Shown: positions 15,571 to 52,398 of the stretch, piece by piece
Layout: every line of letters starts with the position of its first letter
Numbering within the stretch: position 1 is the stretch's first letter
IMG/VR virus record: IMGVR_UViG_3300023283_000076
Location: 32,001-96,000 of that record
DNA: 64,000 nt
Strand: one strand, 5' to 3'
From: a virus
Lineage: Duplodnaviria; Caudoviricetes
The notes under the pieces: generated by a model
What the model was told of the DNA's origin: nothing
What the model saw: the letters and a program-made list of their open reading frames with translations, nothing else
Database searches by the model: none
Made by a program: the position numbers and the translations under genes

Positions 15571-16213
15571 TTAATCGTTTTCATAAATTAAACCTCCAAC
15601 AACCCTAGAAATGTTTTCATAGGTAGGTTTAATATCATGATAAACATCATTTCTGATGATAAAACATCCATTCTTTATACGATTAGATAGATTCATCCAA
15701 TTTTCACCGATTGAATGTAACATTTCGTGAATATCATCAGTATTTTTATTATGTAATTCTTTGTGTAAAAAGAACTTCCTAGCAAACATTTGTAGACTGT
15801 TTCTTTTCCAATCCCTAGCTCTCCATAGAAAAGCATTACAAACGTCTTCACGAGGAACTGAGAAAGCCCTAGAGTCAAATACAGCCATCTATATCTCTTT
15901 CTTTAAGAATTTGATTGAAATATGCTGTCATGTATGCTGCACTTAGTGAAACCTGTTTTGAATGATTGTAATTAAACCACCCCTGTGTTTCATGCGTTTC
16001 ATAATCAGTAAGTAAAAATGTGACTTCATCCGACTGAATAAATGCGGCCTTGAAACCTTGCATTTGTTTTGAAACCATAAGAGCACTCGTGTCCATTGCA
16101 TCCATGAGTCTTCGCAAATGGATATTTACCCGAATAAACGTCTCCCGTAAGTGTAGTATCAACCATCTGTAATAATTCTCCGTTAAATAATAATAACATA
16201 AATCATTAAACAA
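15571..16213 (-). pseudogene. thg1: tRNA-His guanylyltransferase (Thg1)-like, split and N-terminally degraded
   Basis: AFIQSDEVTFLL, QGWF...K.VS.SA..MT..FN, AVFDSRAFSVP..DV.N.F.WR..D..RNSLQM; catalytic RLDG motif not found. Confidence 0.8.
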
Positions 16214-17527: not shown

Positions 17528-18655
17528 TTAACTCGCTTTTTCAAACCATGGTATTTCTAATTCGTTAAATCTCTTAAGCTGTCCGTCATCATAATATTCA
17601 ATTTTATTTTTATATTCATATCCATCAGAATCTTTACGATGAATCAAATTATTATTCGAATCAAATTCTTTCCAATATTCATATCCATCAGAACTTTTAC
17701 AATGAATCAAATTATTATTCGAATCATATTCTTTCCAATATTCAACTTCATCGGAACTTTTATAATGAATCAAATTATTATTCGAATCATATTCTTGCCA
17801 ATATTGAAATCCATTAGAATTCTTATAATGAATTACATTATTATTGGAATCAAATTCTTGCCAATATTCATATCCATCAGAATTCTTATAATGAATCAAA
17901 CTATTATTGGAATCATATTTTTTCCAATATTCAACTTCACCAGAATTCTTATAATGAATCAAATTATTATTCGAATCAAATTCTTGCCAATATTCATGCC
18001 CATCAGAGTGGTTATAATGAATTAAATTATTATTGGAATCATATTTTCTCCAAGATTCTATACCATCAGAATTCTTAAAATGAATTAAATTATTATTGGA
18101 ATCATATTTTCTCCAAGATTCTATACCATCAGAATTCTTAAAATGAATTACATTATTATTCGAATCAAATTCTTGCCAATATTGAAATCCATCAGAATCT
18201 TTATGATGAGTCAAATTATTATTCGAATCAAATTCTTGCCAATATTCATGCCCATCAGAATCTTTACGATGAATCAAATTATTATTCGAATCAAATTCTT
18301 TCCAATATTCATATCCATCAGAACTTTTACAATGAATCAAATTATTATTCGAATCATATTCTTTCCAATATTGAAATCCATTAGAATTCTTATAATGAAT
18401 CAAATTATTATTGGAATCATATTTTTTCCAAGATTCTATACCATCAGAATTCTGATAATAAATCAAATTATTATTCGAATCAAATTCAATGCTATCTTTA
18501 TTATTCTTTAACCACCTGACATAATCTTTATGATCACCGTTAACTTGATCTAATAACTCAAGCGGAAATCCAATAAGATTATTATTTTTTACAAATTCAA
18601 CAGCACTAGTACATGCATCGCGTTCATTTAAAAATTTTTCAGTTAATGTATTCAT
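17528..18655 (-). CDS. Tandem 21-aa repeat protein (beta-repeat, YD/MORN-like)
   Basis: ~14-15 repeats of (E/K)(Y/F)DSNNNLIH(Y/R/F)K(N/D)SDG.EYW.; 63-bp DNA period. Confidence 0.85.
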   Translation of the reverse strand: MNTLTEKFLNERDACTSAVEFVKNNNLIGFPLELLDQVNGDHKDYVRWLKNNKDSIEFDSNNNLIYYQNSDGIESWKKYDSNNNLIHYKNSNGFQYWKEYDSNNNLIHCKSSDGYEYWKEFDSNNNLIHRKDSDGHEYWQEFDSNNNLTHHKDSDGFQYWQEFDSNNNVIHFKNSDGIESWRKYDSNNNLIHFKNSDGIESWRKYDSNNNLIHYNHSDGHEYWQEFDSNNNLIHYKNSGEVEYWKKYDSNNSLIHYKNSDGYEYWQEFDSNNNVIHYKNSNGFQYWQEYDSNNNLIHYKSSDEVEYWKEYDSNNNLIHCKSSDGYEYWKEFDSNNNLIHRKDSDGYEYKNKIEYYDDGQLKRFNELEIPWFEKAS

Positions 18656-42280: not shown

Positions 42281-42406
42281 GGGTGTGTAGCTCAGCGGTT
42301 TAGAGCGTCCGACTGTGGAAGTTGTGGGATACGTAGATCAGGTTCAACTCCTGAAACTTCAAAGGTAATCGGATGGTCGTAGGTTCAAATCCTACCACGC
42401 CCTCCA
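42281..42406 (+). tRNA. tRNA with ~49-nt insertion in the anticodon loop (possibly Asn GUU after removal)
   Basis: Perfect acceptor, D, T arms and TCCGA/TCGGA anticodon stem enclosing 56 nt instead of 7. Confidence 0.85.
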
Positions 42407-47943: not shown

Positions 47944-49344
47944 ATGAATGATAATATCCTAGTAGGAAAAGGCGAAGAGTCGCAAGTACATTTACTTGGA
48001 CAATATGCAAATCGTCATGGACTTGTTGCCGGTGCTACTGGTACTGGTAAAACTGTGACCCTGATGATGTTGGCCGAAGGGTTTTCCCGTATGGGTGTAC
48101 CTGTATTCATGGCTGACGTTAAGGGTGATATGGCAGGTTTGGCAATGCAAGGTAACGACAATCCAAAAATTCTCGAACGTGCTGAAAATATCGGTATTGA
48201 TAATTTTTCGTTTAATGGAAATCCTGTATCTTTCTGGGATTTATGGAACAATTCAGGCAATCCAATTAGAACGAGTGTCGAAAGTATCGGTGCCACCTTG
48301 ATGGCTAGAATGCTCGATGTTAGCGATGCTCAAGAAGGTGTATTAGATGTTGCATATCATTATGCAAGAGAACGTAATATTGCACTTAATACACTCAAAG
48401 ATTTTAGAGCTTTGCTGACGTACATGGCACAAAATAGAGAATTTATCAGCACCGAATATGGATTGATAAATTCAAATAGCATTGGAGCTATTCAGCGTCG
48501 ATTGCTCACACTGGAAAACGATGGAATCGATAATTTTTTTGGCACACCTGCATTAGAATTATCGGATTTTATGCGAAATCAAAATGGTAAGGGTATAATT
48601 AACATTCTTTCTGCCGAGAGTTTAATCTTGCGTCCTAGAATGTATTCTACCTTTTTGCTTTGGCTGCTATCAGAGTTGTTTGATAAGATGCCAGAGCTAG
48701 GTGATGTTGACAAACCTGAATTAGTATTTTTCTTTGACGAAGCCCACCTATTATTTGATGATTGTTCAGGTGCATTGCTTCGTAGAGTTGAACAAGTGGT
48801 GAGATTGATTCGTTCCAAGGGTGTAGGTGTATACTTTTGTTCGCAGAACCCTGATGATATTCCTGAGACTGTCCTAGGGCAGCTTGGAAATCGTGTTCAG
48901 CATGCTTTAAGGGCGTTCACGCCTAGAGACCAAAAGGCTGTTAGAGCGGCTGCTGAGACGTTTGTAGAGAATCCTAATTTTGATGTTGGTGATGTTATAA
49001 CCCGTCTAGGCGTTGGTGAAGCATTAACTTCAATGTTAGATGACAAAGGGATTCCGCAACCAGTTCAACGCACAATGATTTCTCCACCGCAATGTCGGCT
49101 TGGTACAATCAGCCATGAAGAGAGAATGCAAATTGTCGATAATGATTCATTGAAAAGAAAATATAGTAACGACAATAATGTAGACACTACTAATAAATAT
49201 GATCCACGGGATGACTTTGATGATACGATTGATTATTGGAACATTGAGCCATCAAAAAATATCAATCCTGAACCAGAGTCACCTGATAATTTTGTAACAC
49301 GGTTTATGAATGAATTTAGAAAAGCATTAATGTTTAAAAATTAA
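47944..49344 (+). CDS. HerA-like P-loop ATPase, DUF853/YjgR family
   Basis: ANRHGLVAGATGTGKT, DVKGD, FFFDEAHLLF, IRSKGVGVYF.SQNP.D.P..VL.QLGNRVQHALRAFTP. Confidence 0.9.
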   Translation: MNDNILVGKGEESQVHLLGQYANRHGLVAGATGTGKTVTLMMLAEGFSRMGVPVFMADVKGDMAGLAMQGNDNPKILERAENIGIDNFSFNGNPVSFWDLWNNSGNPIRTSVESIGATLMARMLDVSDAQEGVLDVAYHYARERNIALNTLKDFRALLTYMAQNREFISTEYGLINSNSIGAIQRRLLTLENDGIDNFFGTPALELSDFMRNQNGKGIINILSAESLILRPRMYSTFLLWLLSELFDKMPELGDVDKPELVFFFDEAHLLFDDCSGALLRRVEQVVRLIRSKGVGVYFCSQNPDDIPETVLGQLGNRVQHALRAFTPRDQKAVRAAAETFVENPNFDVGDVITRLGVGEALTSMLDDKGIPQPVQRTMISPPQCRLGTISHEERMQIVDNDSLKRKYSNDNNVDTTNKYDPRDDFDDTIDYWNIEPSKNINPEPESPDNFVTRFMNEFRKALMFKN

Positions 49345-49455
49345 TTAAAAACAAATGATCAGAAATATTGTCGAAAAAGTCTTGACAATCTTTGATAAAT
49401 AGATTAGACTGTAGTTGTGATGATAAATCACACATGTAAACAATACGATGAAAAA

Positions 49456-49558
49456 GCGGTGGACAAGAGTACATCGCGGGGCAACCCTACAGTATCGGCC
49501 ATGCTGATCCGGTGATGGTGACAAAGATACTGTGAGTCGGACGCCAAGCGACCGGCCC
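49456..49558 (+). ncRNA. Candidate ~100 nt structured RNA
   Basis: GC-rich; GGG-GCAA-CCC, TACAGTATC/GATACTGTG, GTCG/CGAC stems; upstream promoter. Confidence 0.45.
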
Positions 49559-49581
49559 AAAAAAATTCTCGTTAATAGAAA

Positions 49582-49653
49582 ACAAGACTGGTCCTCGCAT
49601 GACCGTCCCGATAGTAAGAGCAAAGGTCGTTAATTGATTGCCACCAGTCTTGT
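49582..49653 (+). repeat. 72-bp stem-closed element, copy 2
   Basis: Differs from copy 1 by one C/T change and one T indel. Confidence 0.9.
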
Positions 49654-49765
49654 ATTTTAAAAATGTCCTTTCTTGGGCGGTATATCAGCAACTATAAAAA
49701 GCGCGGGGATGGACAGCCCCTTAATAAATGATATATTAACCCTTTTTCTTTTCACCTATAGGAGA

Positions 49766-49795
49766 AAAGGCCCGATTCATTTGGGCCTTTTATTT
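49766..49795 (+). terminator. Intrinsic terminator
   Basis: AAAAGGCCC-gattcattt-GGGCCTTTT followed by T-rich tail. Confidence 0.75.
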
Positions 49796-49919
49796 TTCCT
49801 ACACTAGGACCTTTACCATAAAACTGAATGTATTGTCAAGGAAAATAATAATAAATATCCCTTGACCTTTGAACGAATATTCGGTATAGTGTTATACATA
49901 ATTTAAGAAAGGAGTTGCA

Positions 49920-50087
49920 ATGAACACGTACAAGAAGATTTCTCGTTATGGTCCGGGTGGCCGTAATTGCAATTGTTGTGGTCCTGCTCCTCGGCATCGT
50001 AAGACACATGATCGTATGGTTAAGCGTCGTGAGCGTCAGTATACTAAGAAAGAAGTAGAACAGGAAATGATGAACGTAAATCTCTAA
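49920..50087 (+). CDS. Small basic CxCC protein (55 aa)
   Basis: RBS AAGGAG; MNTYKKISRYGPGGRNCNCCGP; own promoter. Confidence 0.75.
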   Translation: MNTYKKISRYGPGGRNCNCCGPAPRHRKTHDRMVKRRERQYTKKEVEQEMMNVNL

Positions 50088-50200
50088 AACCCCCTTGACA
50101 TATATGTTTTTTAAGATACAATAGTAAGTATAAATAAAGTAGTTCCGAAGAAACCCTTAATATAAGTCGATTTGAAAGGCTTAAAACAAAAACTCATGAA

Positions 50201-50330
50201 GAACAAACTAGACGCAGAATTAGAAACTCTGCAACGAAACAGGGTCCGGAGGGAATGCCGGTAGAATGGTAGGATAGCGCCTATCACGTTGCCCCGCTAG
50301 GTAATTGCCAATCCCTAGCCTAGTTTGTTC
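50201..50330 (+). ncRNA. Candidate 130 nt stem-closed multi-hairpin RNA
   Basis: GAACAAACTAG/CTAGTTTGTTC closing stem; inner stems GCAGA/TCTGC, GCAACG/CGTTGC, GATAG/CTATC. Confidence 0.55.
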
Positions 50331-50343
50331 ATTTTTAATCTTT

Positions 50344-50420
50344 GGGTCTGTGGCGCAATTGGCTAGCGCAGTGGACTTTTAATCCATTGGTTGTGAGTTC
50401 GAGTCTCACCAGACCCACCA
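50344..50420 (+). tRNA. tRNA-Lys(UUU)
   Basis: GGGTCTG/CAGACCC, GTGGA-CTTTTAA-TCCAT, CCA. Confidence 0.95.
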
Positions 50421-50718
50421 ATTTTATTACATAGAAAGCCCATTGGAGAAAAAATGGACAGCCGAAAAGAAGGAATTACAGTAAAACAACACAGCGATGG
50501 GCAGAACAGGGTTTTGACATCGTGGGATATCATGGATATACTATGGGAAGTATATTTTTACTAATTAATGTATGGTATCTTCTTAGAAAGGTCCCGGATA
50601 ATGGAATTATGTATAGTGCATACCTTATGCGATGGGGTGATGATAATGTAGAAGCGATAGATGCAATTAAACCGAATTAACGCTTGACAGATGAAATGAG
50701 ATATGTATAATAGGTTGC

Positions 50719-51191
50719 AAGTGGTCGTTTCAGAGTAAAAGCCGTAATTCAATCGGGCTTTGTACTTTAGATTGAACTAGATATTGCTGGCTGTAGGGTA
50801 ATATCATCACGTATCTACAGGGCGAGGCTACCGTCTTAGCAGTCAACATATAGTCTCAGTCTCGCAGAGACTTTATAAAACCCAGTGAGCGCGAGATTAA
50901 CTGGAAAACAATAACTGGCAGGTTGGGAGAGCGACCCAATGCCCTTGGCGACAAGGTAGCGTAGTGTGACCAGATTATGTAGAGAACGTGCAAACCTTAT
51001 TCTAGATAAGTTAGGCTAGGAGACGAGAAACTTCGAAGAATCAAATTCAGGGCACATTGTAGCAGTCTGTGAAGCGTGGCCCGCGTGGAGACTGCTATTT
51101 CAATTTCAACGGTAAATGCTCTCACCGGAGAAAATATCCACCATCGAGGGTGGTGGGAGATGTAGGTACCAAATCCTACCGGTGCCCACCA
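50719..51191 (+). ncRNA. ~470 nt structured RNA with tmRNA-like features and a tRNA-like 3' end
   Basis: Own TTGACA/TATAAT promoter, many hairpins, pseudoknot then AATAACT-GGC, T-arm-like plus GTGCCC-A-CCA end. Confidence 0.5.
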
Positions 51192-51264
51192 TCTTTAAAA
51201 AATTCTTGACATTAAGATGACTTTGCATTATGATGTAAAATCATATCAATAAAGGATCATATAA

Positions 51265-51582
51265 ATGAAATCAATTGAAGAATGGAGCGCAACACGTTGG
51301 ATTTTTACCGCAATGGCATCTATCATTGCAATATCAGTATTTTTCTTTGTACTGGCATCTGCCGGATTGATCGGTGAAAAGGTGGTGGAGAGAGAAGTAT
51401 TTGAAAATAGTTTTCAATATAGTGAAGCACGAAAAACTGCCATCGCTACATATGAAGCACAGTTGGCTGAAATTGATTCCCAACTTCGAAGCACCAATCT
51501 TTCAGAACGTGAAAGAAGTAATCTACGCTCCCAAGCCGCCCGTCTAAGGGTTCTACTACAAACCGAAAGGAGAAAACAGTAA
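51265..51582 (+). CDS. Single-TM coiled-coil protein
   Basis: ORF track; N-terminal TM segment. Confidence 0.8.
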   Translation: MKSIEEWSATRWIFTAMASIIAISVFFFVLASAGLIGEKVVEREVFENSFQYSEARKTAIATYEAQLAEIDSQLRSTNLSERERSNLRSQAARLRVLLQTERRKQ

Positions 51583-51775
51583 TGAAAAATATTTTTAATG
51601 TGCTAGCCGCAGTAGTCGTCGTCTTTGTCATGGAATGGAGCGCAACACGTTGGATTTTTACCGCAATGGCATTTATCATTGCAATATCAGTATTTTTCTT
51701 TGTATTATCATCTGCCGGATTGATCGGTGAACCCGTCTAAGGGTTCTACTACAAACCGAAAGGAGAAAACAGTAA
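51582..51775 (+). repeat. Chimeric local duplication between two genes
   Basis: Start of the next gene + copy of 51280-51378 + copy of 51539-51581. Confidence 0.85.
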
Positions 51776-52341
51776 TGAAAAATATTTTTAATGTACTAGC
51801 CGCAGTATTCGTCGTCTTTGTCATGGCAGGCTGTCAAGATACGTCTACAACTGCCGAAAGTGAATCTGTCATGAAACAACAGAAGCAGATGCTTACTAGC
51901 CAGCCTATTCCATCATTCAACTGGTCATTGGAACGTGACCTTCTGATTCAGTTGTATAATATTCGTAATGAACGTGTCAGCACCCATAGTGTATGGCGCA
52001 GTAATCATGGAATGGTTGAAGGTGATTGTCCGTCTATTGGATATGGCATTCCCTATGATACTTCTTTGACCAACCCACAGCGAGCTACGGCCCAAGCTGC
52101 TGACAAACGATACACTTCTGAATCTCTAGCCACAATTGAACAAGCTGAACCTAATGGTATCTTCGCCAGTAAGAATACGGCAGCTACATGGGTATTCTGC
52201 GTGGGTAGTGCGGGGGCGTTGAATCCAGTATACGTCGAAACCAAGGTTACTGCATATCCGTATCCAGTTGAGGTTGATTATGAGACCAACAGGGTTACTC
52301 AAGCTGGTGAATCAAGTGTTAATGTGACAGTTAACCGCTAG
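51776..52341 (+). CDS. Phage lipoprotein
   Basis: MKNIFNVLAAVFVVFVMAGC lipobox-like; GYGIPY.T.LTNP, AEPNG.F motifs. Confidence 0.8.
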
Positions 52342-52370: not shown

Positions 52371-52398
52371 GAAACAGGGGGCTCCCCTGTTTCTTTTT
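52371..52398 (+). terminator. Intrinsic terminator
   Basis: GAAACAGGGG-gct-CCCCTGTTTC-TTTTT. Confidence 0.85.

Follow-up and report, generated by a model that had tools for sequence, protein, structure and literature searches.

A putative non-coding RNA gene with a tRNA-shaped, CCA-ended tail in the tRNA-rich region of an uncultured jumbo phage

In vertebrates, the RNase P cut that generates the 3′ end of the long RNA MALAT1 also yields a small tRNA-like RNA, mascRNA, and a tRNA-like element of this type is likewise present in MEN-beta. Among phages, T4 encodes the stable RNAs C and D (species 1 and 2) within its tRNA cluster, the respective genes being rnaC (139 nt) and rnaD (119 nt), and neither RNA has an assigned role (PMC3014915). 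The tRNA regions of giant phages are packed with folded RNAs that are unexplained. Large non-coding RNAs of phages and prophages, ROOL and GOLLD, are often found beside tRNA genes, as is the RNA described here; unlike ROOL and GOLLD, the RNA of this study is smaller and confined to one lineage, with no Rfam model match at E<=10 for either of its two copies.

The locus was found in a 64,000-nt stretch of phage DNA (hereafter the window) and looks, from its sequence features, like a lineage-restricted non-coding RNA gene of ~330 nt plus a 142-nt tRNA-shaped tail that ends in CCA. An initial annotation of this DNA had proposed a rearranged tmRNA or, failing that, a large RNA of a new type with a tRNA-like RNA of ~143 nt behind it; this second option fits all of the results, with the module measuring 142 nt. 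The main value of the analysis at present is negative, in that no new tmRNA architecture is found here. The RNA is limited to one uncultured phage lineage. Unless otherwise stated, coordinates refer to the plus strand of the window.

Genomic setting and layout of the locus

The window comprises bases 32001-96000 of a 270,653-bp IMG/VR virus record (G000), for which completeness is estimated at 79%. The major capsid protein of this virus shares 65% identity with that of Xanthomonas phage XacN1 and 62-63% with those of Xoo-sp13 and Stenotrophomonas phages, and the source is, judged by such sequence relationships, an uncultured XacN1-like jumbo phage of ~270 kb. In XacN1 itself, the tRNA genes sit within 66-kb terminal repeats (PMC5852040). 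The RNA locus is placed in the tRNA-rich early region of the phage genome. The record also contains an inverted mirror, in which positions 1-46,500 match positions 51,800-102,700 (window 19,800-70,700) at 69-93% identity, tRNA sets included, and 63-bp tandem repeats occupy window 17,600-18,500 between the two arms. A second copy of the RNA is located in the mirrored arm. No RNA run is listed among the sequencing runs carrying the locus, and three Logan DNA runs contain only these two known RNA forms, with depths of the window form relative to the second form of ~37:33, 5:19-23 and 0:71; given the last of these, the second form occurs without the window form in some populations. Since the ratio of the forms varies between runs, the mirrored arms represent either a genuine inverted duplication that has since diverged or an assembly chimera in which two strains are joined.

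A HerA-like (YjgR/DUF853) ATPase is encoded at 47944-49344 and shares 64-67% identity with proteins of Wenzhouxiangella and Arenimonas, which suggests acquisition of the gene from Xanthomonadales-like gammaproteobacteria and a host among the same group. One contig carrying yjgR (L004; CAKLQH020000003.1, 47,962-65,179) is filed as ‘Acinetobacter phage MD-2021a’, and yjgR is surrounded there by a full ribosomal-protein operon, guaA, metC and plsB; this contig is a bacterial chromosome rather than a phage. Between the ATPase gene and tRNA-Lys lies ~1 kb without long ORFs (49345-50340), which is 74.5% identical to the relative L031 over 714 nt and includes a number of sites resembling promoters or terminators. 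At E<=0.5 the interval matched no Rfam family, and it probably holds more RNAs that are as yet unassigned.

The RNA is preceded by a sigma-70 promoter (promoter 1; 50684-50711) that matches the consensus at 12 of 12 positions, with TTGACA and TATAAT separated by a 16-nt spacer, and from which the predicted transcript start is ~50718-50720. The transcript would begin with a 5′ RNA domain of ~331 nt without a credible ORF (50719-51049) and continue into the 142-nt tRNA-like module (51050-51191), which is anticodon-less and ends in CCA. A scan of the RNA stretch returned no ORF longer than 46 aa, and the protein collection holds no spurious ORF from the region. Promoter 2 (51206-51234; 11 of 12 positions) begins 15 nt past the CCA end and drives a gene pair at 51265-52341, of which P1 encodes a membrane anchor with a coiled coil (105 aa) and P2 a lipoprotein (204 aa). 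A terminator search of the plus strand found none ahead of P1-P2, the earliest strong one being at 52371-52393. The two genes also occur as an adjacent pair in the unrelated phage contigs L028, L029, L030 and L035, and have the look of a module for exclusion or of the spanin type.

Structure of the RNA and the tmRNA reading

The last 142 nt of the RNA fold far beyond chance (z -3.8, with none of 200 shuffles as good). In the predicted fold, an acceptor stem of 6 bp (51050-51055/51182-51187; G1-C72, G2-C71, G3-C70, C4-G69, A5-U68 and C6-G67) encloses a long hairpin of 40 nt in the position of the D-arm (51059-51098), an arm of 8 bp whose 10-nt loop occupies the anticodon position (51104-51133), an 8-bp extra arm (51138-51156) and a T-like arm of 5 bp (51162-51179), and is followed by an unpaired ACCA (51188-51191) as the encoded 3′ end. 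The T-loop, UACCAAAU, is of 8 nt and non-canonical (not of the GUUCRANYC type), having one base extra and being without U55. The module is called by neither ARAGORN nor RF00005, and lacks the 7-nt anticodon loop and the canonical D and T loops of a standard cloverleaf.

Several elements of the module recur in genuine tRNAs of the same phage. The T-stem GTAGG/CCTAC is identical in tRNA-Pro, tRNA-Ile(UAU), the tRNA at 42281-42406 and one tRNA-Met, the module carrying TACCAAAT where these four have the loop TTCAAAT, and the module end, TGCCCACCA, is identical to the end of the phage tRNA-Leu(UAA). When the RNA was compared by BLAST with the 48 phage tRNAs, the local similarity was too short for significance; derivation of the 3′ module from a tRNA is therefore likely but unproven. 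CCA is encoded in 44 of the 48 phage tRNA genes, and no gene for a CCA-adding enzyme, RNase P RNA or Ro60 (TROVE-domain) protein was found in the 79%-complete record, nor was the locus matched by Y RNA/YrlA (RF02553). When the genome was scanned for further closing stems that end in CCA, the output proved too noisy and was dropped.

One explanation of this tRNA likeness is that the locus yields a single uncleaved RNA of ~473 nt, whose attached tRNA mimic would, for instance, be aminoacylated by a synthetase with no need of an anticodon, or act as bait for host nucleases or modification enzymes that target tRNAs. The acceptor end (GGGCA.../...UGCCC-A-CCA), which is the same as that of the phage tRNA-Leu(UAA), and the long extra arm, a feature shared with tRNAs for leucine and serine, are in keeping with such a mimic; the remodelling of the elbow (D-loop and T-loop) and the absence of the domain from the second copy argue against it, and we regard it as unlikely.

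The fold energy of the first 331 nt is ordinary (z -0.6 versus shuffles), that of the whole RNA having a z of -1.9, and the evidence for constraint in the 5′ domain comes from comparison of the two copies. Across the core (50739-51109) these are 96% identical, with 16 substitutions in 371 nt, and inter-arm identity is 93-98% there, whereas most of the surrounding bins range over 71-92%; conservation is equally high in two further short stretches. An RNAalifold consensus of the two copies contained two double changes that keep pairing, three shifts between G-U and Watson-Crick pairs and nine changes at unpaired positions. No substitution breaks this consensus; as RNAalifold avoids such breaks by construction, the weight rests on the double changes only. 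Both of these convert an A-U pair to G-C. The first (50830 A>G together with 50957 U>C) falls in a candidate long-range helix between GCUACC (50827-50832) and GGUAGC (50955-50960), with 51077 as a possible alternative partner for 50830 in a structure-free count. The second (50999 A>G with 51007 U>C) falls in the hairpin CUUAU-UCUAG-AUAAG (50995-51011), in which 51008 A>G also converts a U-A pair to U-G.

When the 16 substitutions were placed randomly and the alignment refolded, the null P for at least two double changes was 0.037, and the structure-free count of double changes within potential helices of 5-6 pairs gave P = 0.02-0.03. At p about 0.02-0.04, the structural support from two sequences is modest; constraint on the 5′ domain at the RNA level is probable, and its candidate fold rests on two homologous sequences. 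Single-sequence MFE folds were contradicted by 7-8 of the 16 substitutions and were dropped. The segment GGTTGGGAGAGCG (50922-50934), similar to the canonical D-loop/D-stem of many bacterial tRNAs, could be a chance likeness or a further tRNA-derived piece of the 5′ domain.

The sequence elements on which the tmRNA proposal had been built were all confirmed. They comprise the paired segments TCTCGC (50860-50865) with GCGAGA (50891-50896) and CCAGT (50882-50886) with ACTGG (50900-50904), the competing hairpin AGTCTC/GAGACT (50858-50872), a frame of 15 codons plus stop running from GGC to GCG TAG (50917-50964), and the 3′ end GTAGG-TACCAAAT-CCTAC-C-GGTGCCC-A-CCA, which terminates at 51191. The sole 5′ acceptor match, GGGCAC, was correctly noted to lie past the tag, its exact position being 51050-51055, and the G3:U70 pair is indeed missing, the corresponding pair being G3(51052)-C70(51185). 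Read from the sequence, the repeats AGUCUC/GAGACU/UCUCGC/GCGAGA and CCAGU/ACUGG (50852-50904) may form a pseudoknot or competing hairpins. This region is identical between the copies save 50882 C>A, which drops the end pair of CCAGT/ACTGG. The ‘tag’ frame, GRLGERPNALGDKVA followed by a stop, can be read as RNA helices and includes the GNRA hairpin CCUUG-GCGA-CAAGG (50943-50956). A 15-codon open frame and pairings of 5-6 bp are unremarkable by chance alone.

A non-canonical or rearranged tmRNA would have a charged tRNA-like end and a ribosome that resumes at 50917-50964 to tag stalled proteins, and the locus does present a tRNA-like stem ending in CCA, a potential pseudoknot with A-rich sequence after it, and an open frame of 15 codons that in the second copy would finish ...KAA and stop, like the usual tag ends. 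Against this, ARAGORN reported no tmRNA in either the window (19 tRNAs) or the whole 270-kb record (48 tRNAs), and cmsearch with RF00023 and the permuted models RF01849-RF01851 gave no match at the locus even at E<=10; searched on the whole genome, RF00023 matched ordinary tRNAs only, the locus not being among them. Rfam at gathering scores returned nothing at the locus, and at E<=10 over 50420-51300 it returned chance-level matches only, with no tmRNA, tRNA, RNase P, group I intron, ROOL, GOLLD or Y RNA. A weak Magnesium-II match on the minus strand (E 0.054) was taken as chance. A search of the record for an SmpB gene found none.

The architecture of the RNA is equally at odds with a tmRNA. 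Alanine identity is missing, as the third pair is G3-C70, and the T-loop UACCAAAU is non-canonical. The acceptor stem encloses 51050-51191 only. The supposed tag therefore stands 5′ of this 142-nt tRNA-like domain and is not enclosed by it, an arrangement that matches neither one-piece tmRNAs nor known permuted tmRNA genes. The tag frames of the two copies differ by one substitution (50957 T>C), which changes GUA (Val) to GCA (Ala) and has its partner change at 50830; as it is both non-synonymous and compensated within a helix, this single site would seem to act as a helix position and not as a codon. The second copy, moreover, is without any tRNA-like end. Having failed by ARAGORN, Rfam models, acceptor topology, identity pair and T-loop, the tmRNA reading is close to refuted, and we consider it highly improbable.

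The second copy and the distribution of the RNA

The promoter and first 18 transcript nucleotides of the second copy are the same as those of the window copy. Thereafter the second copy has a 271-nt insert after CAGAGU (window 50736/50739) and an extra 12-nt insert after 51056, and it is without window 51110-51264, in place of which are 30 unrelated letters. This loss takes three arms, the 3′ acceptor strand, the CCA and promoter 2, and joins the RNA to the gene that follows, such that GAGGGUGGUGG, once part of an arm, stands directly before the P1 start codon. In this arm P1-P2 are broken by deletions of 32 nt and 160 nt, and the arm may therefore be decaying. An independent 58.7-kb JGI contig has 99.98% identity with the second-copy arm; as the tail has been lost from a copy that is nevertheless the same in an independent assembly, either the tail is dispensable there or the copy is dead. 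The 271-nt insert (L002 1885-2155, minus strand; record positions 15,693-15,963) includes a segment, AACGAUUACUU, that is able to pair with the RNA 5′ end, and had no match in Rfam, in the phage records or elsewhere in the genome.

The joining of the second RNA to the P1 start codon, with GAGGGUGGUGG as the ribosome-binding site and no promoter 2, would suit a cis-acting 5′ leader that regulates P1-P2, as would the lack of a terminator ahead of these genes. In the window, however, P1-P2 are served by a separate promoter, promoter 2, and their leader resembles the one in the RNA-less contig L035, and no riboswitch or leader family was matched; regulation of this kind is improbable as the role of the RNA. 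A self-splicing intron or other mobile ribozyme situated between promoter and gene could account for the RNA being an insertion relative to L035 and for the further 271-nt insertion in the second copy, and the segment AUAUAGUC is similar to a group I core element. Opposing this are the absence from both copies of any match at E<=10 to a ribozyme model, those for group I and group II introns included, the lack of shared flanking exon sequence and of a homing-enzyme ORF, and the uniqueness of the 271-nt insert in the genome and phage database, and a mobile ribozyme is accordingly rated as very improbable.

Syntenic relatives indicate how the locus varies. In L035, of which P1 is 83% identical, the same upstream ORF end and promoter 1 are present and the RNA and promoter 2 are missing, such that promoter 1 leads directly into a leader resembling the window promoter-2 leader, followed by P1. 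In L034, which encodes a HerA-like protein of 69% identity, tRNA-Lys is followed by a P3 homologue without the RNA or P1-P2, whilst the contig of L031 breaks off at tRNA-Lys. Contig fragments of the capsid relatives do not span the RNA region. By these alignments, the RNA is a variable insert among related contigs.

Searches for homologues retrieved nothing beyond the two copies. Exact-pattern scans of viral contigs gave no match; of two such scans of JGI metagenome contigs, one was blank and the other gave the chance matches L044 and L045 only, and a scan of GTDB genome contigs gave the chance match L046 only. Neither copy had a blastn match among 50,697 phage records. Covariance models of the 3′ module (R1) and of the core at 50808-50990 (R2), searched against XacN1, Xoo-sp13, RAS14, RsoM2USA and all fetched loci, recovered their own two copies only. 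A synteny search of contigs bearing relatives of the HerA-like ATPase, P1, the 248-aa upstream protein, P3 or the small upstream ORF did not reveal the RNA. Within the sequence collections covered, the RNA is known from a single phage lineage only.

Such a distribution would also be expected of a decaying and functionless remnant, made up of a degenerate tRNA gene and spacer between two shuffled early-promoter cassettes. The absence of the RNA from syntenic relatives and its restriction to one lineage, the large indels of the second copy, the broken genes around it and the ordinary fold energy of the 5′ domain all favour this explanation. It is less easily reconciled with a core that is 96% identical while the arms mostly diverge by 8-30%, with the two compensatory changes, with an intact acceptor stem, exact ACCA end and strong 3′ fold, or with a promoter 1 of perfect consensus. 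Given that the second copy has no tail and that relatives are without the RNA, a non-functional remnant is a live alternative, albeit a rather unlikely one.

Proposed maturation and comparison with known systems

The absence of a terminator, the tRNA-shaped and CCA-ended module, and the location of the small RNAs of this phage within tRNA operons make the host tRNA machinery the simplest maturation model. We tentatively favour, at a little under an even chance, a stand-alone non-coding RNA gene cassette in which the tRNA-derived tail is a handle for host tRNA-maturation enzymes. In this model, host RNA polymerase would initiate at the consensus promoter 1 and, without a terminator, would continue into the downstream genes; the last 142 nt would adopt the fold of the tRNA-derived module, which has no anticodon and whose ACCA is encoded; RNase P would cleave at 51049/51050; and 3′ trimming would halt at the CCA. 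The products would be a 5′ RNA of ~331 nt, its 3′ end set by the cleavage, and a tRNA-like RNA of 142 nt that would be stable, both freed from the downstream mRNA. Transcription, the cleavage site, the stability of the products and any product function are features that we infer.

Counting against the handle model are the relatives L034 and L035, which are without the RNA at the syntenic site, and the second copy, which is without the tRNA-like tail. Two unpaired bases lie between the T-stem and the acceptor stem, and these, together with the remodelled T-loop, may weaken recognition by RNase P. As to function, our guess, held with low confidence, is a decoy that binds protein or tRNA enzymes. 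A bolder version of the handle model, which we consider decidedly unlikely, is that a large structured RNA matured via a built-in tRNA-derived handle constitutes a new kind of phage RNA gene, and that the released 142-nt CCA-ended mimic, having the acceptor end of tRNA-Leu(UAA), could undergo aminoacylation or could bind anticodon nucleases or tRNA enzymes of the host, and so act as a decoy or regulator during infection.

Compared with described systems, the RNA resembles tmRNA in its CCA end with a tRNA-like stem, its length of hundreds of nucleotides, its possible pseudoknots and its short open frame. It differs from tmRNA in having no G3:U70 pair, no canonical T-loop and no 5′-3′ closure of the whole RNA, and in that the one change in its frame looks to be of an RNA type and not of a coding type.

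By analogy, the nearest phage precedent is that of the T4 RNAs C and D, which are non-homologous. In its predicted fold, the T4 rnaC has a T-arm and is closed by a stem resembling an acceptor, and the module described here is likewise a non-tRNA RNA of ~120-140 nt in a phage tRNA region, with a T-arm and a closing stem. Unlike the T4 RNAs, it has a non-canonical T-loop and an encoded CCA, and is preceded by a 331-nt RNA under its own promoter. Model R1 scored 7.8 bits (E 5.5) against the T4 locus, and no homology with rnaC or rnaD was found by sequence or model.

The nearest mechanistic precedent, also by analogy, is MALAT1-mascRNA, in which a tRNA-like cloverleaf lies behind a long non-coding RNA and whose RNase P mechanism is the one proposed here. 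The two are non-homologous and belong to different domains of life, and CCA is encoded in the phage RNA, whereas it is added to mascRNA. Should the tRNA-derived tail prove to serve in excising and stabilising the larger RNA, the locus would represent a bacterial-virus counterpart of MALAT1-mascRNA, and would offer a simple rule for locating the ends of other phage RNAs.
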